The translations under genes and the position numbers were made by a program. From a virus (lineage: Duplodnaviria > Heunggongvirae > Uroviricota > Caudoviricetes): a DNA stretch of 40,734 bases. The stretch lies in the IMG/VR virus record IMGVR_UViG_2718217785_000001; one strand, given 5' to 3'. How positions within the stretch are numbered: position 1 is the first letter of the stretch; each line of letters opens with the position of its first letter. This document shows, piece by piece, positions 1 through 40,734 of this stretch. The notes below the pieces were generated by a model. That model worked only from the letters and a program-made list of their open reading frames with translations. It had not been told where the DNA came from and searched no databases.

Positions 1-469
<469 letters not shown>

Positions 470-1873
470 TTGAGAATGCCGCGCACTGTAACACATAATC
501 CGGATAGCCCCAATAATGACGATGTTTTAGCCGCATCTGAAAAATGGGACGCCTGTAAACCCCCCTATACCAGCGCACACATGAAAATCTGTGTTGCTGC
601 CGCCAAAATCATCCTCGCTGCTTCCGGTGTGGCTCGCCGTTCCAAATACGAAAAAGAGAACTATCTCCGTATCGATTTCAGCAAAGCCGGTAAGGTTACA
701 TTTTACGCCGAGTTTCCAAAAAAGATGGGCCTCAAAGGTAAAAAGCTCGGCGAGTGGCCGGAGCTCGCTATCCAGCTGGCGCGCGAAAAAGCACTAGGTA
801 TGGCTGACGGTGGACTGCGGGCAGAGTCCGTACATGCAGCGCTGGAAATGTACCGGGATGACCTCAAAGCCAAAGTAGCCCGGCAGAAGCTGAGCCCGGA
901 CAGTTTCACAACCTACGGGGTGCGTATCGACCGGATTAAAGCAACGTTCGGCGAGCGCGAGGTGTTCAGCGACGTAACATACAGTCGGCTGGTGGAAGTG
1001 CTGGACGAGTGGATCGCCACTCGCTCGAACAATAACGCCCTGGAGTTGTTTGCCGAACTCCGTCGGTTCTGGAAGTTCTGCGCACCTACTCTTTGCAACG
1101 GCCGCAATGTTGCCGCCAGTTTGCCAGATGATTATGTTTCCTCCCGCGTACAGAAACCCACCCCCACACGGCTTTTTACCGATATTGAATCAATCGCCCG
1201 ACTCTGGCTCAATGTTGCTGCCTGCACCTCTGTACACCAGAAGAATGCTGTTCGCTTCATGATCATCACTGGCGTTCGTCCGATTAATGTCCATAACCTG
1301 CGCTGGGACTACGTTCACGAGGAGGCTGGTGAAATTGTTTATCCGGAAGGGGTTATCGGCATGCGAGGGGCTATGAAAACACAAAAGGCTTTCCGCCTGC
1401 CGATAACGCCTGAGATCCGGCGGATTATCGACGAGCAGAAAGCCTGGCGTGATTCAGTTCCTGAGTGCAACAGGGATTATGTATTTTTGCAGCCACGTGA
1501 TCCAATGCAGCCATTTTCAAAACGATCACTGGATAAGCTGGTGAAAACATACAGCCCGGACGGGGCTGTAAAAGGAATAAAACATGATGGGACTGTTAAA
1601 GGGAAAGACGGTGCATTTAATACGATGTGCCGTAAATTCCTTAAGAGCAATGTTATTGCCTTGATGAAGGAAAGAGGCTATTCCCGATCAGACCGAAGGG
1701 AAATCAGCCTCCTTTGCCTTCACCACTCCAGCAAGTCAGATGACCCGATGGCAGAACATTACGACTTTTCTGATGAGATTTTACAGGAAGAGATTGCGTT
1801 AAAGCGCGAAGCTTTCGAGGCTCACGAGCGGAGCATACTTGCGCAGGTGGCATTGCTACGGCGGCGAGGTTAA
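470..1873 (+). CDS. int: Phage integrase, tyrosine recombinase (start uncertain; alternative ATG at 581)
   Basis: 467 aa ORF at prophage edge; C-terminal region with conserved R, H-x-x-R and terminal Tyr context typical of tyrosine recombinases; lies next to host gene. Confidence 0.8.
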   Translation: MRMPRTVTHNPDSPNNDDVLAASEKWDACKPPYTSAHMKICVAAAKIILAASGVARRSKYEKENYLRIDFSKAGKVTFYAEFPKKMGLKGKKLGEWPELAIQLAREKALGMADGGLRAESVHAALEMYRDDLKAKVARQKLSPDSFTTYGVRIDRIKATFGEREVFSDVTYSRLVEVLDEWIATRSNNNALELFAELRRFWKFCAPTLCNGRNVAASLPDDYVSSRVQKPTPTRLFTDIESIARLWLNVAACTSVHQKNAVRFMIITGVRPINVHNLRWDYVHEEAGEIVYPEGVIGMRGAMKTQKAFRLPITPEIRRIIDEQKAWRDSVPECNRDYVFLQPRDPMQPFSKRSLDKLVKTYSPDGAVKGIKHDGTVKGKDGAFNTMCRKFLKSNVIALMKERGYSRSDRREISLLCLHHSSKSDDPMAEHYDFSDEILQEEIALKREAFEAHERSILAQVALLRRRG

Positions 1874-2070
1874 TACTGGCTGCGACATTTTTGAATAAAA
1901 GCGTCGACATTTCGGCGCTCATAACGAACTACTTTTGCACTGAAACGAATTGGTGCCAGGATAGCCCGATGACGATGCTTAATATTCCACTCACATAGCG
2001 TTTTCTGTGTAATACCTAACTTTTGGCATACTTCATCCGGGGTGAGTAAATCGTCGGGTTTCTCGCTCAT
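1870..2070 (-). CDS. Small HTH DNA-binding protein, excisionase-like or AlpA-like
   Basis: 66 aa, helix-turn-helix-like segment (LTPDEVCQKLGITQKTLCEW), immediately beside integrase. Confidence 0.55.
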   Translation of the reverse strand: MSEKPDDLLTPDEVCQKLGITQKTLCEWNIKHRHRAILAPIRFSAKVVRYERRNVDAFIQKCRSQY

Positions 2071-3461
2071 GCTATACCTCTCTTTTTCATGGCATCGAGC
2101 AGGATGTCCTGCACTGTTCGTTTTGAGTTGCGCCGCTCCATCACCATTTCGTCCATAGTGTCGGCAGCAATAATGTGGTGAATAAATACCGGACGATTGT
2201 GTCCGGCCTGTATCTGTCTGGTTGGGCCGATACGTTCAATAATTTGCTGATACTGCTCCAGGTCCCACCAATGTGAGAAAAATACCAGTATGTTTCCGCC
2301 GTCCTGCATGTTCAGACCGTGGCCCGCGCTGGCTGGGTGTGCAAAGAGAACAGGAATCTTTCCGGAATTCCAGTCACGTAGTGTCTGTGGATCCTGGTCG
2401 AGGTGACGACCGCGAGGAAATGCTTTAAGCAAGCGTTCAAGATCGTGTTTCCAGTGATAAGCAACCAGCACAGGTGCGCCAGCTGCTTCGGTCAGTATGC
2501 TGTCCAGCGCCTGTAGTTTGGTGTCATGCAGTTCTGACCAACTTCCGGTGTCATCTGTGTATACTGCGCCGCTGGCGATTTGCAGACACTTCAGTGTCTT
2601 TGCCGCGGCGTTTGGTGCTTCGATGCCTTCGCCATTCAGCTCGAGGAACATTTCCTTTTCCATTTCACGATACTGCTGACGGGCCTTCGGCGGCATATCC
2701 ACGCGGATTACGTTATGGATGGGGTCTTTGATATCGAACCAGTCGGTCGCATCCAGCGAGAGGGTCACATCGGCTAACGCTCGCTGTATTTCACCCTGTG
2801 AGTGAGCAAAAGGCTCCAGTTTGGTCCAGCTCTGCCCCGGAAACTGTATCGATTTGAACCAGCGTGAGGTAAACGCGCCGTAAGTGCGCCCGAGACGTTG
2901 CCCCAGGTCCACAAACCACGATTGTCCCCACAAATCTACCAGGCCGTTCGGTGCTGGCGTACCGGTGAGATTTATCCAGCGCCGGACATACTTGTGCGCC
3001 ACTTTGCCCAGCGCCGCCGCGCGCTTACCACCACCTCGCAGCCGGAAGGATTTTAGCCGGGTGCTTTCATCTGGAATGACAGTACCGAACGGCCATCGTT
3101 CTCCCAATTCCTCAACCAGCCAGACAAGGTTATCGTAGTTGATGGTGAACACGCTCGCGTTGTTGTTCGCCAACGCTGCAGAGCGCGCTTTGGCATTACC
3201 AACAATTGATTGTACCTCGATATTGCGCAAATGCCCCCACTTCAGTGCTTCATCCGGCCATGTGCTGGCAGCCACGCGCAGCGGCGCGAGAACCAGCGCA
3301 GGTTGTGTTTCTGCACCCGCCATGAAGAGGTCTTCCAGCGTAGTGAGTGTCGCTACGGTTTTACCCATTCCCATACCCGCCCAGATGTTGCCGCGCAGAA
3401 TGTTAGTTTGGTGATTGATTATGAGGTTTTGATAAATTCTGGGGTGGAATATGCTATTCAT
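2067..3461 (-). CDS. SNF2-family helicase/ATPase (phage replication module)
   Basis: Walker A GMGMGKT, DEST motif II, C-terminal helicase motif ERIGPTRQIQAG. Confidence 0.85.
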   Translation of the reverse strand: MNSIFHPRIYQNLIINHQTNILRGNIWAGMGMGKTVATLTTLEDLFMAGAETQPALVLAPLRVAASTWPDEALKWGHLRNIEVQSIVGNAKARSAALANNNASVFTINYDNLVWLVEELGERWPFGTVIPDESTRLKSFRLRGGGKRAAALGKVAHKYVRRWINLTGTPAPNGLVDLWGQSWFVDLGQRLGRTYGAFTSRWFKSIQFPGQSWTKLEPFAHSQGEIQRALADVTLSLDATDWFDIKDPIHNVIRVDMPPKARQQYREMEKEMFLELNGEGIEAPNAAAKTLKCLQIASGAVYTDDTGSWSELHDTKLQALDSILTEAAGAPVLVAYHWKHDLERLLKAFPRGRHLDQDPQTLRDWNSGKIPVLFAHPASAGHGLNMQDGGNILVFFSHWWDLEQYQQIIERIGPTRQIQAGHNRPVFIHHIIAADTMDEMVMERRNSKRTVQDILLDAMKKRGIA

Positions 3462-3534
3462 TAATACACCTATGGTAGAATATGGTCACTTCTCTCTCTC
3501 TATATATATATATATATAACTAACGGAGGCGGGT

Positions 3535-4332
3535 ATGCCCCTGGCGAAAATATTTACAAAGCAAGTTTCTTTATTAACTATGTTTTCAGCGTTAGCTTAT
3601 GCGATGGCATATTATTTTCAGAAAGGTGTCGCATCGTATTATGGCTATCCAGACCTTTTTATTAAAATAGACTTAAATACGCTATTGTATTCGGCTGTGT
3701 GGCTTTTGTTTTTTAGTTTTTTATTTCTCGGCGCCTTATATGCGGCGTTGATGTTTGATTTGAAAGGAAAATATTATGTTCCATTTATTGTATTTATAGT
3801 TGTTATGCTAATGGCTAATATTTGTATAATAGGATTTCATTGGCCTTTTGGTTATTTCTCCGAAACTTCTGTGATGAGTGTTCAGGATATTTTATTATTT
3901 GCTATGCTTTTGTTGAATTATCACAATGTGGTGTCTATGCCAATCCATAGTAAGAGACACGAACATCATATGGAGAGCATTAGAAAATTTGGGAGGCTTG
4001 CAGAGTATAAGAACGTATTTTATTATATCGATTTAAAAATCCTAAAGTCAGCTTTTCCTTTAGGGGTGATAACGTTGTTGATATTGAGCTATACATTCGG
4101 GAAGGTTACTGCATTTAAAAATAACGAATATTATATGGTAGATGGTAGTAATACTAAAGTGTTGCTCAATTCATTTGGTAGTGGTTTTGTTGTTGGTGAT
4201 TGTGAGTCAAATAGCGCAAAATTTGAATTTGTTAATGATTTAAAAGGGATGAGATTCACAATTATGTCCTCTAAAAAGGAAATAGCTAAATTAAAAGAGT
4301 GTTTCGAAATACGTGTTAAAAATACGGATTAA
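3535..4332 (+). CDS. Low-GC moron encoding integral membrane protein (about 4 N-terminal TM helices plus C-terminal soluble domain), unknown function
   Basis: 265 aa ORF, strongly AT-rich codon usage, opposite strand to flanking replication genes, RBS GGAGG at 3525-3529, hydrophobic N-terminal segments. Confidence 0.6.
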   Translation: MPLAKIFTKQVSLLTMFSALAYAMAYYFQKGVASYYGYPDLFIKIDLNTLLYSAVWLLFFSFLFLGALYAALMFDLKGKYYVPFIVFIVVMLMANICIIGFHWPFGYFSETSVMSVQDILLFAMLLLNYHNVVSMPIHSKRHEHHMESIRKFGRLAEYKNVFYYIDLKILKSAFPLGVITLLILSYTFGKVTAFKNNEYYMVDGSNTKVLLNSFGSGFVVGDCESNSAKFEFVNDLKGMRFTIMSSKKEIAKLKECFEIRVKNTD

Positions 4333-4344
4333 AGCATAAGTCTT

Positions 4345-4632
4345 TTATCCTTTATTGCGGCTTAAAATAATGGCTTCCAGATTTTTGCTATCCAGCACCA
4401 CTACGGTAAAGCCCAGCGCGCGCAACCGTCCGTGTTCGCGCAACTGGTCAGGCCGTGGTGGCTTGCCGGGGGATTTACATTCAACGAAAATGATACGACC
4501 GCCGGGTAGCAGAACAATGCGATCTGGTACCGAGCGGCGACCGGGGGATACGAACTTAAAGGCAACCCCGCCAGCCTTTTTTACTTCAGCGACGAGGTGC
4601 TTTTCGATTAGGTTTTCACGTTCATAGGCCAT
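4345..4632 (-). CDS. VRR-NUC domain nuclease
   Basis: 95 aa with PD-(D/E)xK-like D...ECK motif (PDRIVLL...IIFVECKSPG) typical of VRR-NUC. Confidence 0.75.
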   Translation of the reverse strand: MAYERENLIEKHLVAEVKKAGGVAFKFVSPGRRSVPDRIVLLPGGRIIFVECKSPGKPPRPDQLREHGRLRALGFTVVVLDSKNLEAIILSRNKG

Positions 4633-4826
4633 TAGCTTTCGCCTTCCTGCTTTTTGCGTTTCTTCATGCAGATAGCGCAGTTCTCAGGATGGTCATGCCA
4701 TTCATCAATCCTGATACCTATGAACATCCATTTTCCGCATAGTGATATGGCTTCCCCCGAATTAAAGAAATGTGCTTTTTTTGACAGAGCGGGGAACCCC
4801 CAACCCTTATTATCGATATTAGACAT
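4632..4826 (-). CDS. Small Cys/His-containing hypothetical protein
   Basis: 64 aa ORF tightly coupled to the VRR-NUC gene; contains C-x12-H-x-H-x3-C-x2-C pattern; no family recognised. Confidence 0.4.
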   Translation of the reverse strand: MSNIDNKGWGFPALSKKAHFFNSGEAISLCGKWMFIGIRIDEWHDHPENCAICMKKRKKQEGES

Positions 4827-4862
4827 CGTCCACCTCCTTACGCTTTTCGCGCATGTTCTGCA

Positions 4863-4997
4863 TCAGACAAAAATCAAACCGACGTTCGCTTTGGCCCAGA
4901 CCTGCATCGCCCGGTCGTACCCGCCGGACTGTTCAAGGTGCAAAGCCTCCCGCACAGTCCGGTAATAAAGCGGACTGTCCCGGTATTTAAATGACAT
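4863..4997 (-). CDS. Possible 44 aa small ORF (MSFKYRDSPLYYRTVREALHLEQSGGYDRAMQVWAKANVGLIFV), unknown function
   Basis: ATG-initiated ORF in otherwise noncoding gap, found by manual translation; below the ORF-track length cutoff. Confidence 0.25.
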   Translation of the reverse strand: MSFKYRDSPLYYRTVREALHLEQSGGYDRAMQVWAKANVGLIFV

Positions 4998-5011
4998 AGG
5001 GTTTTTATTCC

Positions 5012-5038
5012 CAAATAAAAAACCCCGCGATGCAGGGT
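5012..5038 (-). terminator. Intrinsic terminator downstream of the TIR-like gene
   Basis: Minus-strand hairpin CCCTGC-ATC-GCGGGG followed by TTTTTTATTT. Confidence 0.5.
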
Positions 5039-5060
5039 TGTAATCAACAATAAGGGGTAA

Positions 5061-5822
5061 TTACGAGGAAGCGTTAGCTATTTGAGCTTGTGTAAATTCG
5101 AAACCAGAATTTTGTAACCGTTGCACTAGACGAGGAACTGTTTCACGTACATGGTCGTTGAAATTCAGATACAAAATCCCGTTAGCATCAGAAGGCTGTT
5201 CTAGGTGCTGTTTCTGAAGGATTGCTACATTGCTGCGCCCTAAGGACGAAAGAAGCATACCCATCTCGAGTACAACGTTCTGTCTTGCGCGGGGTTGGAT
5301 TTCTGCTTCACCGGCGCGCTTTGAGTATCCCATATCATCAGGTGTCAAAAGAACAATCCCGAAACGGGTAGCAGTTTGTCCTTGCCCAATTTCACGTTCA
5401 AGCTCTTCAATAATGGTGAGTCCAGTCCCTCCCGTATTCTGCAAAATGAAATGGTCTGGTAATCCAAGTTTATGAAGGATTAGCTCAAGTTGCTCCTTTG
5501 CAGTATGGTCATGGCCGTGAACAATGAATATCTTTTTGGGGAGCTCAGATGGCTGTTCTACGGCTAGTGGTGTTGCCGTGGGCGGCGTTCCTAAATGGGT
5601 CATTATTGCAGTTTCAACATTGGGACGTTCTTGAGGGTTACCTTGAAACTGAATGGTCCGGGTGGTGTAAAGGTTAACAATTACGCCATTCGTTAAACGA
5701 TAGCAGTCACAAGTCTCACGCTGTTCGTGGGAAAAATTGGTGAACCCACACTCCCCCAAAAAGTCAGGAAAAGATTCTCTCGGGTATGGATAGGTGATCG
5801 GCATTTCAGTTAGTTCCTGCAT
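5061..5822 (-). CDS. Protein with C-terminal TIR-like (COG4271-type) nucleotide-binding domain and unassigned N-terminal domain; candidate defence or abortive-infection effector
   Basis: 253 aa; C-terminal motifs KIFIVHGHD, VLLTPDD, RARQNVVLEMG resemble TIR-like/SLOG-type domains from memory; GC lower than flanking pol gene; own terminator. Confidence 0.5.
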   Translation of the reverse strand: MQELTEMPITYPYPRESFPDFLGECGFTNFSHEQRETCDCYRLTNGVIVNLYTTRTIQFQGNPQERPNVETAIMTHLGTPPTATPLAVEQPSELPKKIFIVHGHDHTAKEQLELILHKLGLPDHFILQNTGGTGLTIIEELEREIGQGQTATRFGIVLLTPDDMGYSKRAGEAEIQPRARQNVVLEMGMLLSSLGRSNVAILQKQHLEQPSDANGILYLNFNDHVRETVPRLVQRLQNSGFEFTQAQIANASS

Positions 5823-5886
5823 AAGTATTGTTCCTTTAATTTACTCGAATTCAGCATGTCGCCATAGCTCGATAAGGTGAGTTATA

Positions 5887-7950
5887 TCAATCTTTTTTGT
5901 AGTGGTACGCCTCAAAACCGCCAGCGTTCAGTGGGATATCGGGCGCCCATTCGGGGTCAGTGGAGAGAAGCGCGGAAAGCGCTTTATCGTTGAAATCTTC
6001 TGTGTCAGGTGCTTCGGTGATCACCTCGTCGTGTACCGTCAGCACAATGCTGTAACCGGCATCTTCGATAAGCGGCATGTTTCCGGCCAGAATGTCGCGG
6101 GCGGCCGCCTGGGTGATGTTCTCCACCAGCTTTCCGCCGTAGGTTTTGAGTCGTTGCCATTTACGCGAATAAGAGTTAACCCCCATGTAGGTGATATTCC
6201 CTTTTTCGATAACCGGAGACGGGTAGCATACAGCGCGTCCTGATGGTAGCTGTATGCGCAGCCACGCGCCATCGCGGCGGATTTTAAGATAACCGCAATA
6301 CAATGTTTTTTGCGGTGTGGCGATTGCAGTGCGGACGGTGCGCTCCAGTTCGTACCAGAAATCACAGGTCGCGGGATGCGCCCGGCGCCAGAGACGTTTA
6401 AGTGAGTCGCAGGCGATAAATACCCGTTCAGAAAGCCCGTAGGTTGACTTGCGTTTAACCGATTCGTCGTACCAGCTTTTCGCCTCGTGGATAACATCGC
6501 GGGGAATGTTTGGTAGTGCGGCGTTCGCCAGCTCGTCGAGATCGAGACCGTAAACCAGTGCAAAAGTGATGAAGGCCGACACACCACCACCATAACCCAG
6601 ACCGAGTTCCATGACTTTACCGATCTGACGCATGTGTTTATCAACATCATCTGGTGCAATATCGAAAGCTTTTGCATACGCCAGTTTATATAAGTCCGGA
6701 CCCGTTCCGGCGTCGTACTCTCTGAATGCATTCAGTTTCCATTCTTCTCCCGCCAGCCATGCCAGCATACGGCCTTCAATGTTCGACAAGTCACTTACCA
6801 CCAGCTTTTTGCCTGTTGGCGCGATAATGCAGCCACGTAACGCTGAACTGGTTAGTTCCATGATATTGTCAAACAGCAGGTCTGCACATCCGGCTTTCAG
6901 TGCTTCGATGCCTTCGTCTATTTGTTCCTGTTTTAGTGAAGGGCGGGGAAGGTTCTGGGGCTGGAATAGCCGTCCGGCCCAACGACCGGTACGTGACGCC
7001 CCGCAGAACTGTAGCGTACCGCGTAAGCGCCCGTCGTGGCTTACGCCTTTCATCAGTGCCTTGTATTTACTGGTGCTGGTAGTACTGGCCTGCAGGCGGA
7101 TAGCCAGCAGTTCTTTCACGGCAGATGGTAAATCGGGGTCGGCAATACGACGTTCCAGAGTACTGCGTTGCATGTCTGGTAGCTCCACACCGTAGGATTC
7201 AACAATGTGCTTAATCAACGCGTCTCGTTGTGTGGCTGCCTGCACTTCGCCATCAGTCATTTCCTGTGTACGCTTTGCCAGGCGCTTTTGTTCCTGGTCT
7301 ACCGCGTCGATCGCAGCGCGTGCGAGTTCCACGTCCATGCAGACGCCCCGGTCATTGATCTGCTGATCACGATGCCAGAGCGTCAGTTCTGTCCCCTGAT
7401 AATTCCACTTCGGCAGACGTTTATAGACTTCGCGCATTGCCTCGATATCCAGTCCGGCGTAAGCAACAAAGCGCCGCCATTCTTCCGGGTGGGTTTTGCT
7501 GGTGGCACGGCGCAGTTTGCTGTTTTTCGGGCGGGGCTTACAGAACAGCTGGATCAGCGCTTTACCTTCTTTGTCCTTCGCTTTGTCTTGCGGGACGCCT
7601 AGTACTTCGCAGAGTTCCCCCAGAGACCCCGGGAGACCGTGCGCCAGCGCCTGCACCATTGTGTCGCGCCAACGTTCGACTGGCGGTGCCAGGCGCGGCA
7701 TTGCATAACGCAGGACGGTGCGGTCGAAGTGAGAGTTATGGAAATAAAGCAGGGTTTCAGGGTCTGCGATTGCTTCGTATAAGCCGTGTGGAATACCACC
7801 ACCGGCAGTGATATCCCACACGTTTACGGGCCCGTCGTTGATAGCCCATGCGAACAGCATCACTTCAACGCCTTCGGCATACGCATGGGTACCGTTCGTA
7901 ATAGGGATTTCGCAATAGGTTTCTAGGTCACCCCATAGTATATTGGACAT
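5887..7950 (-). CDS. Family A DNA polymerase with 3'-5' exonuclease domain
   Basis: 687 aa; exo motif GDLETY, pol motif [17 protein letters not shown], motif [17 protein letters not shown], motif C VHDEV. Confidence 0.9.
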
Positions 7951-8006
7951 AAAATAACCTTGTGTGATATATGGTTATGTAGGCGTAAATAAACAAGGAG
8001 ACGGCG

Positions 8007-8276
8007 GTGTTTAGCTTTGGTATCGGAATACTTTCATTGATAGGTATTATTGCTTTCCCCATTCTTTATATTTTAGGGAGAATAGTTCGGGCTGGTGGCG
8101 CATGGCTCGAACGTGAAGAAGGTCCTAAGGATCGTGTTCTTCCCAAAATTATAATTTTTGCGCTTATTGGGTTCTTTCTTGGGTGTTTGGCTCAGCCTGT
8201 ATGGGACAGCATTTCGGCATGTAGAGACTATGGCAATCCAATAGGGAAATGTCTTTTTAAATTCAATGAATTTTAA
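8007..8276 (+). CDS. Low-GC moron encoding small membrane protein (2 TM), GTG start
   Basis: 89 aa, GTG start with RBS AAGGAG at 7995-8000, opposite strand to replication genes, AT-rich, hydrophobic segments. Confidence 0.5.
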   Translation: MFSFGIGILSLIGIIAFPILYILGRIVRAGGAWLEREEGPKDRVLPKIIIFALIGFFLGCLAQPVWDSISACRDYGNPIGKCLFKFNEF

Positions 8277-8343
8277 TTTTTAGTATTGCGGTAGGCTGGT
8301 TTGGATAACTATTTTCTTAAGCCAGCCTTTGTTATAAGAAATA

Positions 8344-8982
8344 TTAAGCATCTACCCCTTCGTCAGAAGGGAGGCCGATCATTTCGTTGAGAGTTTCGCG
8401 TCGTATAGCTGGCGGAAGCGGAGCAGATGGTGCATCGGCTGGCAGAAGTTCTTTAGCTTCAGGCCACTCTTCCAGCAGGCGCTTAACTGTGCGCACTTTA
8501 CTGAGTGCAGCGCTGACATTCTGTCGAATGTCTGACTCATCGCTCTGTATCTGCTCATAAAGTGCATCAAACCCGTAAAACTCTGTAACTAGAGGGTCAT
8601 TTGCCAGAAGGGTAAATTCCCCCGGCGCGATTTTGTGAATATGGTCTGGTGACCCTGATTCATATCCTCGATAGTTACCGTTGAAATAGACGGTAACCCG
8701 AGAACCTGCCAGATTCAGACACATGTAACACTCTTTCCTGATAATATTATTGGCGGTTTTTAATGCTTCGGGGAATTTTGATACCAGTGTTTCTATTTTT
8801 TTTATAATTTTTAATATTTCAGCTTCTTTCTCTACGCCCCCGATAGCTGCAAGCCGAACACGTTCGGCCCATTCAACACGAGCAGCTCGTAGTGCTGATT
8901 TACGTTTGGGGATACCCGCTTTCTCAAGTGCGTTATTGATGATTTGAGTTTTAAGGTGATTAGTTAATACGGGCTGTGACAT
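8344..8982 (-). CDS. Hypothetical phage protein (replication module); ORF could start 15 nt upstream at 8997
   Basis: ORF with RBS GAGGGAAAG ahead of internal ATG (MSQPVL); no family recognised. Confidence 0.55.
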   Translation of the reverse strand: MSQPVLTNHLKTQIINNALEKAGIPKRKSALRAARVEWAERVRLAAIGGVEKEAEILKIIKKIETLVSKFPEALKTANNIIRKECYMCLNLAGSRVTVYFNGNYRGYESGSPDHIHKIAPGEFTLLANDPLVTEFYGFDALYEQIQSDESDIRQNVSAALSKVRTVKRLLEEWPEAKELLPADAPSAPLPPAIRRETLNEMIGLPSDEGVDA

Positions 8983-9034
8983 TATTCTTTCCCTCATGAG
9001 ATACCCCCAGCACGTAGCTGGGGGATGAATATTT

Positions 9035-9583
9035 TTAAATTAGTGCTTCAGCATCAGCACCTTCGCTGATATCGTCGAAATCGTCAGCGCTTGCCACTCC
9101 GCCGCCAGCGAATGCATCGCCGTCTCGCAGGAACTGGACTCCGCCGAGTGAGGCATTAATGCGTTTACCGAAATTATTGTCCTGTGCCCAGATATCGATA
9201 ACGGCGTTTACATAGCACCCTGCATAGGGACGTCCGTCAGCCTGAATAAGTGGCGAACGATCGCGATCAAGAACAGCTGGGCGCGCTTTGTTAGCAGCAT
9301 TCAGGAAGAAATTACCGGGGAAGCCTTCATACTCTGCTTTTTCATCACCATCATGCAGGCACAGATTGAGTTTTTTCTCCAGCTGGTTATAAATGGGCTC
9401 CCACTTCTCTCCCCATTTTTCCTTCGCTACCTGCTTCATAGCTTTACGGATTTCTTCCAGTTGTGGGTGTTTGGGTGACATTAAAAATACTGCGGAGAAA
9501 CGTGGATCGCCTTCGCCGTTTACAGTTTTAGCTTCAAACAGAGACGGGAAGGCCAGACGAACATTGTTCAGCTTCAGTTTCAT
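9035..9583 (-). CDS. DUF2815-like phage protein (putative ssDNA-binding)
   Basis: 182 aa, N-terminal MKLKLNNVRLAFP and acidic C-terminal tail typical of DUF2815 proteins that accompany Pol A in this module type. Confidence 0.65.
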   Translation of the reverse strand: MKLKLNNVRLAFPSLFEAKTVNGEGDPRFSAVFLMSPKHPQLEEIRKAMKQVAKEKWGEKWEPIYNQLEKKLNLCLHDGDEKAEYEGFPGNFFLNAANKARPAVLDRDRSPLIQADGRPYAGCYVNAVIDIWAQDNNFGKRINASLGGVQFLRDGDAFAGGGVASADDFDDISEGADAEALI

Positions 9584-9598
9584 GGGTATTTCCTTAAA

Positions 9599-10900
9599 TC
9601 AGATGAGGTCTGCGGTTAGCGTATCGTCGGATACGTCGTCGAAATCATTTATAGGGTTGATATTGAGTGCGGGGCGTGGGTCTGACTCGGGAACGACGGT
9701 GGGTTTACCATCAGCTCGTGTTATCAGTGCCTCGACTTTTGACCAACGGCGCGGACTGGCCTTTTTGATAAGTTTTTCGGCTTTTGTGGGGCTAATAAGT
9801 TTAAAGTCGAATACTTCTTCAGTTTTGTACCTGAACTGGTCCTTCAGAAGTGCGCGAGCTGCCTCTTCATCACTCCAGGCCCGGTTACCTTGTTTTCCTG
9901 TTACCAGTTTAAACCCCGGTACCGGATGTCCGGCATTGAGTTCATTGTGAACCCGGTCTCGTACTGCCTTTAGCCAGGATTCAATAAAGTCGGCCTGGCT
10001 ATAGATCTCCGCAAGCTGCTCAATGGTTAACAGAGGTACACGTGCGCTGGCATTGGTGATTATTTCGCTGACAGGCTTTGTCAGATCTTCAAAATCGCTG
10101 GCCGCTGTTTGTAAATGCTGCATTTTCTGGGCAGTGCAAATAGCTTTTGCTTTACAGAAGCGGCACTGTTTTTCTCCAGGTATGAAGTTTTCCAGCGGTA
10201 GTGTCTCAATGCCTTCGCATTCAGCAATATTGAGAACAAGGATCGCACTGGTTGCGGCCTCCTGTGCCCGTTCACCGAAAGACTGAAGTTCCTGTACGGT
10301 TAACGACCATTCTGAAACGTGGTTGAGCCTTGGCTGGTGAATAAATAATCTTACAGTCTCAAAGTCATACAGCATGCTGAATTGTTCGAGTGCACCCAGG
10401 GCATACAGTTGTAGTTGCTCATTTTGTTCTGCATCAATGCGGACGCCTTTGCCATATTTCAGGTCGTGGATTTGTAATTCGTTACCAGCGATGATTATGC
10501 CGTCGGCAGTTCCGAAAGATTCTTCCACACCCGTTATATGTGAGAAATCAACACGTTGTTCAACCAATAGTTCATTATTCTGTGCAAGAGTCCAGACCGT
10601 ATCAACATACCGGCCAACGGCTTCGACCATTTCATCATCCACCTGTGGGCCAGATGTATCATCAGGATTTTCGCGAAGGGGGTATGAGCCGAGAAACATA
10701 GAAACATTGCATCCGGCGTAGTGTTCCGGGTGGCTTTGCCTGTTTCGTAGAACTTTTTCAGCAAGCGCGTGCGCTGCAGTGCCCTCGATTGCAAAAGTTG
10801 TTTCTTTATCCGGTTGTGTGGCCTCCAGCGCCAGACTTCCTGGGCAGCGCATCCATCGATGCGCTGATGATGGAGAAAGTTGTGCGTGAACGTCTGGCAT
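9599..10900 (-). CDS. DUF2800 / Cas4-like PD-(D/E)xK nuclease with Fe-S Cys cluster
   Basis: 433 aa; N-terminal Cys (RWMRCPGS), D-x-K motif [10 protein letters not shown]-terminal C-x2-C-x5-C ([13 protein letters not shown]). Confidence 0.75.
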
Positions 10901-10902
10901 GA

Positions 10903-11805
10903 TTAACCCTCCAGTGCTTTTTCAGCCAGGGTGATTACTTCAGCGAGATTTTCATCCGTTACTTCACCAAGTTTCCTGGCTCCCTGTTTTTCCAGAATTG
11001 CAATAGCTTCTGCCCGGTAGCCCCCTTTTGCTAACTGGAGGATCAACCCTTCAGCTTGTTTGCGTAGTGCCGCGAAATCAATTGTATGGTCATCTTTGGC
11101 GTCATGATTCTGGCTGGAATTTGCTGCGTCTCTGCGTGCAAATTCTTCCTGCAGCTGAAGGTACTCAACACGGTTGATCTCGATATGGCCTTTTTTAAGC
11201 ATCTCGTTCAACTTGCGTAAGGTGTGGAGTTCACTGGCTGCTGTGCCGGATACATTTTTGACGTAAAACGGCCCCGTGCGTTCTCCATCTTTGTCACTGG
11301 CCTTTTTCGGCTTAACTTCATCACGCCCATCTGCAGGTGCATCAAGTAGCTGCTCGGCAAAAGCGCGTCGCTCGCCGATGGTTGGCAGGTCGTCCCAGAA
11401 CTTAAGAATGTTACGGGACAGGTCCAGGAGAGCAGGTTTAAGCAGCGCCCTGGCTCGTTTGACGCCCTGCAATGCGCTGTCGAGAGCATCAATCTGAACT
11501 ACTCGTTTATCGCCTTCAGCATCACGGTAGGCAACAGCACGTTGCAGCATATCTTCTGTGATAGGGGTGGCTACCGGGTAGAAACCAGCCAGTGCGATAA
11601 CGTCGCTGAACTCCAGATCATCCAGTGTCATTGCCGCTGACATATTTTCAGTTTCAGTTGCTGTATCCCGACATTCCTGCACTCGTGAAATTGTGTCAGG
11701 ATGCATAACAATACCTGATGCCATTGTGCGGATAAGACGTTCAAGCAGCGCATTATGTTGTGCCAGAAGTTGATTATTAAGTTCTAGACTGGTTTCTAAA
11801 CTCAT
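10903..11805 (-). CDS. Hypothetical phage protein
   Basis: 300 aa ORF translationally coupled to neighbours in the leftward early operon. Confidence 0.55.
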
Positions 11806-37042: not shown

Positions 37043-37705
37043 ATGCATCGTATAGACACGAAAACCGCGCAGAAGGATAAGTTCGGCGCGGGTAAGAACG
37101 GTTTTACCCGTGGTAACCCCCAGACCGGCACGCCTGCCACCGATCTGGATGATGACTACTTTGACATGTTGCAGGAGGAGCTTTGCAGCGTTGTGGAGGC
37201 ATCCGGTGCCAGCCTGGAGAAGGGGCGGCATGACCAGCTGCTTACCGCGCTTCGTGCGCTGCTGTTAAGCCGCAAGAATCCGTTTGGCGATATCAAATCG
37301 GATGGCACGGTGAAAACAGCTCTCGAAAACCTTGGTTTGGGAGAAGCGGCGAAACGAAATGTGGGAACAGGGGAAAATCAGATACCGGACATGGCCTCTT
37401 TTGCCAGTGGTGATGGATGGATGAAATTACCCAACGGGAAAATCCTGCAATATGGTCGTGGGCGTGTGTCTCCTACGCTTGCGAGTCAGACACTACGGGT
37501 AGAATTTAATATACCTTTCCCTAAAAAAGCTGATATTGCCTTGCTTTCACATTCTGGTGATGGTGGTTCAACTGCCGGGAGTGGTCGTGGTTTTATGATG
37601 ACAACTGAAGAGCCAGGGTTAACAGGGTTTTATTCTGCCTTTAGAACAACCTCGACAAGTCCAACTGTTACCATGAATTACTGTTGGTGGGCTGTTGGCG
37701 AGTAA
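37043..37705 (+). CDS. Tail fibre protein: constant N-terminus (res 1-104) fused to variable C-terminus inside invertible segment
   Basis: 220 aa; N-terminus [21 protein letters not shown] typical of e14/Mu-type fibres; crossover site within LGLGEAAK coding region. Confidence 0.75.
37320..37350. other. Left crossover site of invertible segment (hix/gix-like)
   Basis: TTGGTTTGGGAGAAGCGGC at 37332-37350 is the exact reverse complement of 38917-38935; imperfect palindromic half-sites AAACC/GGTTT. Confidence 0.65.
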
Positions 37706-37725
37706 TTTTATTCAGGGTGATTTAT

Positions 37726-38169
37726 ATGAACAAATATGTTTATAGTGCCAGACATAATGCTTTTTTCCCTGTGGATATGATTGATAAATATAAATCAGAG
37801 GGATGGGATTTATCAGATGTGAAAGAAGTGAATCAAAATATTGTCAGTGAGTTTATGGCTGAACCGCCACAAGGAAAAGTCCGTATTGCCGGAGATGATG
37901 CGCTGCCTGCGTGGGCTGATATTCCTCCACCCACGCATGAAGAGCTTATTGAAATTACTGAATCAGAAAGACAGCTACTAATTAACCAGGCCAACGAATA
38001 CATGAACAGTAAACAATGGCCCGGTAAAGCCGCTATTGGTCGTCTGAAAGGTGACGAACTGGCGCAATATAATTTGTGGCTGGATTATCTGGACGCACTG
38101 GAACTGGTTGATACTTCCGGTGCGCCAGATATTGAATGGCCTACGCCTCCGGCTGTTCAGGCCAGATGA
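37726..38169 (+). CDS. Tail fibre assembly protein (Tfa), active orientation
   Basis: Conserved Tfa core (LPAWADIPPPTHEE), directly after fibre gene. Confidence 0.7.
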   Translation: MNKYVYSARHNAFFPVDMIDKYKSEGWDLSDVKEVNQNIVSEFMAEPPQGKVRIAGDDALPAWADIPPPTHEELIEITESERQLLINQANEYMNSKQWPGKAAIGRLKGDELAQYNLWLDYLDALELVDTSGAPDIEWPTPPAVQAR

Positions 38170-38557
38170 CATCAGGGGCCGTTGACGTATCGACGGCTTT
38201 CACCGCTTTTTTATGCGCCATCCACTCAGACAATTTCGCTTTATCCTCGTCACTTATATCGCCGAGCATTAATTCAACCCGCCAGTCGGCGGTTACTTCG
38301 TCAATCTGCTGTAGCCGTTGCTGGCGATATTGTTCTGCCGCCGCTATTTGCTCTTCATGCGTTGGAGGCGGCGCATCGACCCAAGCGGGCAGTCCAGTGC
38401 TATCTGCACCAAGCATTTTACCTTCAGGCCAGGCAATACCAGCAAATTGGTTGTAGAGGTTAACACTGATTTCAATAGCTGATTCAGGAATAAACCTGCT
38501 TTCAGGTTCAATATAAAATCCGTTATCAACGGCGTCATAAAAGTATCTTGTTTTCAT
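38141..38557 (-). CDS. Tail fibre assembly protein (Tfa), alternative cassette
   Basis: Same Tfa core (LPAWVDAPPPTHEEQ) on the opposite strand, convergent with the first. Confidence 0.7.
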   Translation of the reverse strand: MKTRYFYDAVDNGFYIEPESRFIPESAIEISVNLYNQFAGIAWPEGKMLGADSTGLPAWVDAPPPTHEEQIAAAEQYRQQRLQQIDEVTADWRVELMLGDISDEDKAKLSEWMAHKKAVKAVDTSTAPDVIWPEQPEA

Positions 38558-38558
38558 G

Positions 38559-38935
38559 TTAATAACCTATTGCGAATAAACAACCGGCAGCTGAAGCACC
38601 CGCCCATGAAGTCCCATTAGTTGTTCTTAAAACACGAACTTTGACTGTCGTTCTGGTAGAGCCACCAATATCGAAGCCCCACGTTGTGCCGGCCGATCCA
38701 TTCCACGAGCTAGCAGAAGCACCTGAGTCAATCGCAGTGGCATGAAACAGAGCGTTAGGAAATGCCATAGGTAATGTCACGGTTGCTACTCCAGTCGAAT
38801 CGGAAAGAAATCCAGAGACCCACTGGAAAATGATATTTTGTTCAACCCCACCAATTAAAGCCGGGATCAATATTCTCCCGGTATTACCCGTTACCCCTAC
38901 AGCAGCGCCAAGTTTTGCCGCTTCTCCCAAACCAA
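38559..38935 (-). CDS. Alternative tail fibre C-terminal cassette (silent in present orientation)
   Basis: Minus-strand ORF sharing GLGEAAK junction with the + strand fibre, lacks its own constant N-terminus. Confidence 0.65.
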
Positions 38936-38947
38936 CGTTTATGAAAA
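38917..38947. other. Right crossover site of invertible segment (TTCTCCCAAACCAACGTTTATGAAAA)
   Basis: 26 bp hix-like imperfect palindrome; inverted copy of left site. Confidence 0.65.
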
Positions 38948-39001: not shown

Positions 39002-39316
39002 ATGCTTATTGGCTATGTACGTGTGTCAACAAATGACCAGAACACCGATCTGCAACGTAATGCACTGAACTGCGCGGGATGTGAGCGGATTTTTGAGGAT
39101 ACAATCAGTGGCACTAAGTCCGACAGACCAGGGCTGAAAAAACTGCTCAGGACATTATCGGCAGGTGACACTCTGGTTGTCTGGAAGCTGGATCGGCTGG
39201 GGCGCAGTATGCGGCATCTTGTCGTGCTGGTGGAGGAGTTGCGCGAACAAGGTGTTAACTTTAGTAGTTATGTTATTACAGGTGGGGGATTTCTCCCCCT
39301 TATGCAGATTTTCTAG
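39002..39316 (+). pseudogene. pin: Pin/Gin/Hin-family serine DNA invertase, truncated after about residue 85
   Basis: N-terminus MLIGYVRVSTNDQNTDLQRNAL...TLVVWKLDRLGRS matches Pin-type resolvase domain; homology stops near 39262 and ORF ends in unrelated low-GC sequence. Confidence 0.7.
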
Positions 39317-39320
39317 TTAA

Positions 39321-40166
39321 CTATTGGCGAAGTGGCCATATTTTTCTGTTTTTTAAAAAACTATCTCCAACTATATAACTGCAACAATGTTCACTAAGGC
39401 CATAAAAACTAATTATTCCATATTTATGAGAAGCTATATCAGACAGTTCTGCTAATACTGTGGCAAGCCAACGAGCGATGCTAAGAGAATAGAATCTTCC
39501 CCATTTTTGAACAATGGTATTTTGTCCAGTACGGATGGAGGCTGATATAAGGTCTTGCATCATGTTGGTACTTTCATTCATATACATGATCGTTGTATAC
39601 GGCGAAAGAGTGGCATTGATAAACCTAGCATTTTCTTCAACACGTCTTTGTTCAACTGTATAATAATAATGTTTTTCAAGGATACTCTCGGCTACTTCTC
39701 CCCACCATTTATTAATAGGTTCATTATTGGTTAAATTGGGGCTGCTTAATGAAGAGAAATTTGCGTAACGTCCCCGTCGGGCATCAGCAAAGGAATCTAA
39801 ACATTCAAGTATTTTGTAGGTGATTTTATGTGTAGGACGTGAATATCTCAGAGATAGTTGCATTTTTTTAGAAATACTATCAACCTCGTTGGTTAATTCA
39901 ATGAGCTTATGTCCAAATTTTCTTACAATATTCTCGTCAGGCATTTTTCCTTTATGTTCAATGGCATAGTGTGCAACAAGTATTAGTTTAGCAAGTCTCT
40001 CAAAACCTACAGAAAGCCCAAAAAATGCAGTGTAATACTCACCTATTTTGTCTGCATAATTGGCTTTACCTATGGCTGTTGCCCCAGAACCAATGAGCTG
40101 TGTAACTAAAGATGCTTCTCGGCCCAGAGCGTGCCATGCTGGAATATCCCAGGGATTTTTATTCAC
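39321..40166 (-). CDS. Low-GC cargo gene, unknown function, at the invertase-distal hotspot; candidate defence gene
   Basis: 281 aa ORF, AT-rich, occupies the position where e14 carries mcrA; no recognised motifs. Confidence 0.6.
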   Translation of the reverse strand: MNKNPWDIPAWHALGREASLVTQLIGSGATAIGKANYADKIGEYYTAFFGLSVGFERLAKLILVAHYAIEHKGKMPDENIVRKFGHKLIELTNEVDSISKKMQLSLRYSRPTHKITYKILECLDSFADARRGRYANFSSLSSPNLTNNEPINKWWGEVAESILEKHYYYTVEQRRVEENARFINATLSPYTTIMYMNESTNMMQDLISASIRTGQNTIVQKWGRFYSLSIARWLATVLAELSDIASHKYGIISFYGLSEHCCSYIVGDSFLKNRKIWPLRQ

Positions 40167-40467: not shown

Positions 40468-40734
40468 CTACTGGAGAAGGCTACCTGAACTTCGATCTAT
40501 TCCTGCATCCATATAGTTGATGGTCTTCTGGAGCTCTTCGATTAGGGCAACAGCTTTTGCTCGAGAAATGCATATTAGGTGATCCGGAAATTCTTGTAAG
40601 GGCCAGTTTGGTATACAGGCCATGTTATCAGTGAAGGATGCAGACAAGTAAACTTCATTGGTAACCAGAGAATAGCTTACCTCAAAATTGGTGAGCTCCG
40701 GCAAACTGCTAACGTTTGACTCTTTTCTGCGCAT
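40468..40734 (-). CDS. Hypothetical cargo protein; start at window edge, may extend beyond
   Basis: 88 aa minus-strand ORF ending at 40468, low GC, upstream of the 281 aa cargo gene on the same strand. Confidence 0.4.
   Translation of the reverse strand: MRRKESNVSSLPELTNFEVSYSLVTNEVYLSASFTDNMACIPNWPLQEFPDHLICISRAKAVALIEELQKTINYMDAGIDRSSGSLLQ

Follow-up and report, generated by a model that had tools for sequence, protein, structure and literature searches.

Can a tail-fibre switch still turn when the invertase gene beside it has been cut in half? The question is raised by the right end of a 40,734-nucleotide (nt) stretch of caudovirus DNA (IMG/VR record IMGVR_UViG_2718217785_000001), here called the window, in the sense of the whole stretch that was analysed. 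The window is 100% identical to positions 3779633-3820366 of NZ_CP010133.1, from Escherichia coli C11, a cow isolate in which it belongs to a prophage. Near its right end, a fibre gene is split around a segment of about 1.6 kb, which is followed by a truncated pin invertase gene. Invertible fibre segments are textbook biology, represented by the G segment of phage Mu, the C segment of P1 and the P segment of e14, and the evidence supports the view that the present segment is a tail-fibre switch of the e14/Mu type which works like these three. The reading as a whole, that of a Pin-type host-range switch that has lost its own enzyme and is flipped in trans, is very probably correct, and the part of it that concerns an invertible tail-fibre segment can be held with still higher confidence.

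The inverted repeat and the split fibre gene

The initial annotation of this DNA had reported an exact 19-base-pair (bp) inverted repeat, and reverse-complement comparison bore this out: positions 37332-37350 read TTGGTTTGGGAGAAGCGGC, and positions 38917-38935 are their exact reverse complement. The window holds two copies of this 19-mer, one per strand, even with up to three mismatches tolerated, while the chance expectation was 0.01 matches and two copies were reached in 0 of 100 shuffles. The repeat lengthens to 29 nt at 93% identity (37327-37355 / 38912-38940), and its first 15 nt equal TTGGTTTGGGAGAAGG, the repeat of the e14 P segment in E. coli K-12 (PMC12529663).

As had also been proposed, the two repeats sit in hix/gix-like imperfect palindromes of 26 bp. 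The left, fibre-proximal site (37320-37345; CTCTCGAAAACCTTGGTTTGGGAGAA) is self-complementary at 18 of its 26 positions, and the right, invertase-proximal site (38922-38947; reverse complement TTTTCATAAACGTTGGTTTGGGAGAA) at 16 of 26. Each is, without a single difference, one of the two sites that bound the e14 P segment in K-12, the right one being the pinE-proximal e14 site; in addition, the left one aligns to the annotated crossover of P1 cixL. A manual count from the alignment gave 20/26 and 19/26 matches between the window sites and P1 cixL and cixR, respectively. The two inverted sites share the central dinucleotide TT and are the sole two such sites in the window. The GenBank record of P1 annotates the crossover within cixL and cixR, with an alignment core of ...AAACCT/TGGTTT..., and the predicted strand exchange is placed at the central TT, at 37332/37333 and 38934/38935, which are the first bases of the exact repeat. 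The sequence on the inner side of both sites is identical while the outer half-sites are unlike, which is what a segment flipped many times would show.

The invertible segment itself (about 1.6 kb, 37332-38935) interrupts a fibre gene whose constant N-terminal part (codons 1-96; 37043-37331, + strand) stands outside it and is homologous to fibres of the e14/SfV type. Residues 1-102 of the fibre match PHROG 1396 (tail fibre), and the constant part together with ymfQ showed 96.8% identity to e14 ymfQ-stfP up to position 37361; its identity to SfV, SfI and SfII is ~97% up to ~37397. In C11, the constant part is joined to a variable C-terminal cassette, termed A (37332-37705, +; Gp53-like_C, residues 128-219), giving an open reading frame (ORF) at 37043-37705 (+) that encodes a fibre of 220 amino acids (aa), followed by the Tfa chaperone of this cassette (37726-38169, +; Caudo_TAP, 3.4e-30; PHROG 188). 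The opposite strand carries a second variable cassette, B (38559-38935, -; Gp53-like_C, 5e-09), silent in C11, with its own Tfa chaperone (38141-38557, -; Caudo_TAP, 4.2e-32). The Tfa genes converge and share 29 bp at their 3' ends (38141-38169), and their products are 32% identical. The sole stretch common to cassettes A and B is the junction peptide GLGEAAK, which is in frame in both: inversion of 37332-38935 in silico produced an uninterrupted 221-aa fibre in which the first 103 residues were kept and the C-terminus was that of cassette B. The layout described in the initial annotation, a cassette plus Tfa on each strand with an in-frame GLGEAAK junction, is thus the one recovered from the ORFs, the Pfam matches and the inverted sequence, and the repeat proved exact and the frame was kept on inversion, the two points on which that description had been open to refutation. 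The locus therefore has the make-up of a split fibre gene: its 5' part is constant and stands outside the segment, and either of two 3' cassettes continues it in frame, to fibres of 220 and 221 aa, each cassette having a chaperone of its own.

A repeat finder also returned a 43-nt inverted repeat of 77% identity inside the Tfa genes (37903-37945 / 38350-38392). It was rejected as a further recombination site, as it corresponds to the conserved Tfa motif LPAW.D.PPPTHEE coded on both strands. RefSeq annotates no more than fragments of the silent cassette and gives the invertase as just a partial 'recombinase family protein'.

Both orientations beside a truncated invertase

Two E. coli genomes matched the window only at 37327-38940, which is the repeat-bounded stretch. 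In strain C10, likewise a cow isolate, the prophage occupies the chromosomal site that it has in C11 and all protein accessions agree, but the segment lies the other way round between its flanks. Once inverted in silico, the C11 sequence showed no mismatch to C10 over 42,768 bp, whereas native C11 differed from C10 at 1,104 positions, all of them within 37351-38916; C10 is thus C11 with precisely the interval 37332-38935 reverse-complemented. Cassette B stands in C10 in the expressed orientation, and the alternative fibre, with this cassette fused, is annotated there as an in-frame coding sequence of 666 bp (WP_249530955.1). This comparison is the natural counterpart of an orientation-specific polymerase chain reaction, and it confirmed the proposed invertibility by the opposite orientation in a 42.8-kb context that is otherwise base-for-base identical.

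The inversion was also found in other genomes. NCTC9041, with an intact pinE, carries this cassette pair unflipped, and 23AR1101, in which pinE is interrupted by an internal stop, carries it flipped; in both genomes, the diagnostic bases beside the 19-bp identity were exchanged as predicted. A second type of cassettes, that of vB_EcoM-611R5, stands next to the same truncated pin in 18 genomes that match end to end at 100.0% in one orientation, while the version flipped in silico, truncated pin included, matched three genomes (22AR0747, MSB1_6C and 1296KP) end to end at 100.0%. Both orientations are thus found in each of two cassette lineages that carry this truncated invertase. The locus of E. 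coli 14EC029, in which no recognisable crossover core was found with up to three mismatches, was for that reason left out of these orientation counts. The record of vB_EcoM-611R5 (ON470588) was considered as a packaged phage with the truncated pin and rejected as such, since it holds the host genes yfhH, pgpC and tadA and is a prophage region.

Inverted repeats may confuse assemblers, and the difference between C10 and C11 could on that ground be taken for an assembly artefact. Such an explanation is exceedingly improbable, because a repeat of 19-29 bp is far below any read length and because the alternative orientation is exactly reproduced in the assemblies of other laboratories (23AR1101; 22AR0747, MSB1_6C and 1296KP). 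At most, a mixed culture would have been collapsed to one orientation, which would itself be proof of flipping.

The initial annotation had called the region a host-range switching module. The cis-acting parts of such a module are present and in register, but the neighbouring invertase, which had been overlooked, is truncated. The pin ORF retains codons 1-89 of ~184 (39002-39268, +), followed by 15 unrelated codons up to a stop at 39316, in the place where an adjacent full-length serine invertase was looked for. Its start resembles that of PinE (MLIGYVRVSTNDQ...), and the region of the catalytic serine is retained. With e14 pinE, it is homologous (90.5% identity) as far as 39268, the end of codon 89 of 184, and the protein alignment with PinE is concordant; the Pfam Resolvase match is restricted to profile positions 2-98 of 145, with no DNA-binding domain, and RefSeq marks the gene as partial, with its C-terminus missing. 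The truncation lies within the prophage, as attR is found beyond it, and is identical in C10 and C11, that is, in both orientations. Without the remainder of its catalytic domain, and with neither oligomerisation helix nor DNA-binding domain, the cis invertase is, to judge by its sequence, dead. With pin cut after codon 89, the module cannot flip alone and depends on an invertase supplied in trans. The right end composed of the truncated pin and a 281-aa gene behind it was present in 44 of 5,426 complete E. coli genomes, where it is joined to various fibre modules.

C10 and C11, identical apart from the inversion, have one and the same truncation junction, so the inversion between them postdates the truncation. 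This bears directly on the possibility of a frozen relic, in which an invertible ancestor would have fixed the present orientations before pin was cut and no flipping would have occurred since. The truncated cis invertase agrees with such a course of events, as does the single orientation of 18 of the 21 genomes in the second cassette lineage. It would require, however, that the same truncation arose independently in each orientation, and both orientations stand on otherwise 100% identical backgrounds with an identical truncation junction in two independent cassette lineages; a relic is therefore very unlikely. The same observation, both orientations beside an identical truncated pin in two cassette lineages, implies that the inversion must be catalysed in trans.

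Candidate enzymes acting in trans

Invertase loci elsewhere in the chromosome were counted by chimeric probes, in which a C11-specific anchor was fused either to the 3' half of pinE or to pinQ. The anchor alone found one place each in C11 and C10, and the anchor found two places with the pinE 3' half and two with pinQ, which indicates that each of the two chromosomes has one pinE-3'-like and one pinQ-like locus elsewhere. Between rspB and ydfJ of C11, synteny walking revealed a complete lambdoid, Qin-like prophage, in which the annotated pinQ is intact (4,910,222-4,910,812); its product is identical to K-12 PinQ at 194 of 196 aa. An e14-type crossover core, with up to four mismatches, was not found in ~58 kb around this prophage, so that PinQ is without an obvious substrate of its own there. 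A second pinE was also sought at the e14 attachment site of C11, where icd directly adjoins iraM and no element was found. The Qin-like prophage (chromosome 4,863,222-4,912,000) is of full length from integrase to side tail fibre, with an IS3 in gene J and pinQ at the prophage end, whereas its K-12 counterpart is the Qin remnant only.

PinQ, PinR and PinE have each been reported to invert the e14 P segment (PMC12529663), and Fin of Fels-2 acts on the Salmonella H segment, according to the citation of Kutsukake et al. (2006) in PMC4272514. The best candidate for the flipping enzyme would be the intact PinQ of the resident Qin-like prophage, with the second pinE-like locus as another; by analogy with e14, PinQ may be active on the C11 segment.

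The retained part of pin may contribute to this reaction. In the P1 record, nt 19-90 of cin are annotated as the enhancer for inversion by Cin, and the homologous stretch inside the truncated pin (39020-39091) showed 75% identity to cin and 87.5% to pinE, with its centre 121 bp from the right crossover. The Hin enhancer lies ~100 bp from its hix site and is functional also at a distance (PMC3798978), a spacing that the 121 bp fit. By this homology, positions 39020-39091 may be a working recombinational (Fis) enhancer.

In the mechanism proposed, codons 1-96 of the fibre gene would remain fixed, while the last ~124 codons and the matching Tfa would be provided by whichever cassette faces the constant part. 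A serine invertase acting on the two inverted 26-bp sites would swap strands at the central TT, so flipping the 1.6-kb segment, and a population of lysogens would yield particles with two fibre tips, a form of host-range bet-hedging. Both sites have been preserved, as has the 5' stretch of pin homologous to the enhancer, so that an invertase produced from another locus of the cell could still act on the segment. An influence on host range is suggested by homology and architecture.

Flips could also result from rare RecA-dependent homologous recombination between short inverted repeats instead of site-specific recombination, and the breakpoints are resolvable only to within the 19-bp identity, which does not itself separate the two mechanisms. 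The repeats of the segment, 19 nt exact or 29 nt at 93%, are at or below the length that RecA usually requires for efficient recombination. In addition, they are invertase sites of the canonical kind, with no difference from the e14 sites that have been flipped experimentally, the inversion recurs in separate lineages and an intact PinQ is present, all of which make the RecA route very unlikely.

The e14 system offers a different view of what the switch is for. There, PinQ-driven inversion of the P segment gives StfE2, which blocks the adsorption of T2 (PMC12529663), and a chimeric fibre expressed from the prophage could likewise keep other phages from adsorbing, so that the segment would serve host defence and not the host range of the phage. 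The e14-like sites and constant region of the present locus speak for such a role. The cassettes are unlike those of e14, however, and the segment stands at the end of a late operon that looks complete, in an intact prophage whose fibre is part of the virion. Defence in place of host range is considered unlikely; the two roles are not mutually exclusive.

Several observations weigh against a host-range switch driven in trans. The Fis-core scan (GNNNNWWWWWNNNNC) gave 95 matches in the window against 89 expected by chance, with a single strict match in the retained part of pin (39132-39146), so enhancer sites cannot be located by such a scan. The chromosomal place of the pinE-3'-like locus of C11 was not found. 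In the Keio pinE deletion strain, the P segment is locked despite pinQ and pinR (PMC12529663); native PinQ could be too weak, or the deletion could also have taken the cis enhancer, the second option being our own suggestion. As for the comparison of the cassettes with receptor-binding domains advised in the initial annotation, both cassettes contain Gp53-like_C and no match of known specificity was obtained. The search of PDB sequences with fibre variant A returned one weak match, the short tail fibre gp92 (E 2.4e-4), and that with cassette B none, so that no receptor can be assigned to either cassette; NCBIfam had no model for either fibre variant.

The reading of a trans-driven switch may be extended to a whole prophage lineage. 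In this proposal, the lineage at yfhL/yfhH, comprising the 44 genomes that share the truncated-pin end and at least four fibre modules, lost the 3' half of its invertase to a HEPN-like cargo gene and kept the sites and the enhancer-homologous stretch, and its switch is obligatorily driven by an invertase that another, unrelated prophage of the host supplies, for example PinQ of Qin. The balance of evidence tips modestly towards this proposal.

Relatives of the switch and its host prophage

The closest known system is the e14 P segment (stfP/tfaP/tfaE/stfE, pinE). In addition to the two identical 26-bp sites and the identities noted above for the constant part with ymfQ and for the 5' part of pin, the order of the elements is the same: constant part, cassette and Tfa, second Tfa and second cassette, pin and then a cargo gene. 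The cassettes, in contrast, are without DNA homology to those of e14 except for a 181-bp Tfa stretch at 83%, and the segment measures 1.8 kb in e14 and 1.6 kb here. Moreover, e14 is a decayed element at icd, a site that is empty in C11, whereas the present segment belongs to a complete SfV-like prophage at yfhL/yfhH, its pin is truncated, and its cargo gene encodes a 281-aa protein of unknown function in place of mcrA. The C11 segment is not the e14 element proper, as location, cassettes and host prophage all differ.

With the P1 C segment and Cin and the Mu G segment and Gin, the locus shares the split fibre gene S (Sc with Sv or Sv'), the U and U' chaperones and the 26-bp sites with a central crossover dinucleotide; the enhancer in the 5' end of their invertase gene has a putative counterpart here in the homologous stretch. 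Unlike it, the segments of P1 and Mu are of 3-4.2 kb, with much longer fibres, long inverted repeats and intact invertases, and cin of P1 points towards its segment while pin points away. The precedents for inversion in trans, PinQ and PinR on e14 P and Fin on Salmonella H, the latter as cited in the work named above, are alike in that the invertase of one prophage flips the segment of another element, as would be the case here. They differ in that those segments keep a working invertase of their own, whereas the cis enzyme is lost here and in the 44 genomes, in which the dependence on an invertase in trans would be obligatory.

The structural half of the prophage resembles the serotype-converting Shigella flexneri myoviruses SfV, SfI, SfII and SfIV, its packaging, head, tail and baseplate regions being ~97% identical to theirs as far as a point shortly beyond the left crossover site. 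The similarity to SfV, SfI and SfII stops at ~37397 and, among the matches listed, no invertase was found in the matched features. Cassette A and its Tfa (37321-38182) showed instead 87-88% identity to the P2-like phages pro483, a P2 relative from O157:H43 and Citrobacter phage Omnitron, positions 1501-2349 of the pro483 locus aligning to this interval. The P2-like similarity begins at 37321, reported as the first base of the left crossover site, and the cassettes thus appear to have been swapped between phage families there.

The C11 prophage lies between yfhL and yfhH and is flanked by an 18-bp direct att repeat (TTCACACATATCACAATT) at 214 and 40940, the second copy (attR) being just past the end of the window. 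All expected modules are present with open genes: integrase, repressor/Cro, PolA-type replication, Q antiterminator, lysis, terminase and portal, as well as capsid, sheath, tube, tape measure and a Mu-like baseplate. The prophage looks like a complete SfV-like myovirus. Its replication and early region differs from that of SfV, being a PolA/DUF2800/DUF2815 module, and the combination of an SfV-type virion module with a replication module unlike that of SfV makes the prophage a mosaic. This early module (2067-11805) encodes an SNF2/DEAD-box helicase, a VRR-NUC protein, a family A DNA polymerase, an Nmad5 'nucleotide modification' protein, DUF2815 and DUF2800. The same early region contains a gene for a TIR-domain protein (5061-5822, -), which matched the PADLOC candidate defence system PDC-S35 (2e-108) and is placed between the DNA polymerase gene and a frameshifted ANR-family regulator.

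The place of the pin 3' half is taken by AT-rich cargo DNA (39269-40166, -; GC content ~36%), which begins where the homology to pinE ends and is not part of the switch. It carries the 281-aa ORF (39321-40166, -), in the slot that is occupied by mcrA in e14 and by a GIY-YIG nuclease gene in NCTC9041. Searches of Pfam, PADLOC, PHROGs, NCBIfam and PDB sequences gave no match to the protein. Gamma- and Alphaproteobacteria have at least 485 homologues, uniform in length and 55-74% identical, and that of Enterobacter is located directly behind a type I restriction-modification operon, beside an integrase. An 88-aa ORF (40468-40734, -), whose start codon is formed by the last three bases of the window, matched PHROG 17793 (unknown function; 2e-44) and is a constant companion of the 281-aa gene in the interval from the truncated pin to attR. 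The E. coli 14EC029 locus (1-5846) has an identical end of truncated pin, 281-aa gene and yfhH, and the right ends of 14EC029 and vB_EcoM-611R5 are joined to quite different baseplate/fibre modules (DUF2612 / glycine-rich fibre).

The locus itself adds little to what is known of fibre switches, this type of switch being well established, and its orphaned but active state is a modest twist, given that Pin enzymes acting in trans have already been published. Recognising the switch explains the 1.6-kb inversion and the differing annotated fibre protein between otherwise identical genomes, and the cassettes held in common with P2-like phages from the crossover site onward are an illustration of module exchange between phage families. 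If the proposal for the whole lineage is true, the prophage would depend on another prophage, and its tropism could be switched in no host but one in which a compatible Pin is already present. A switch with a dead invertase of its own is still flipped in nature, so that a segment need not be frozen when the invertase beside it is missing or truncated, and the prediction of prophage host range must consider invertases encoded elsewhere in the genome.

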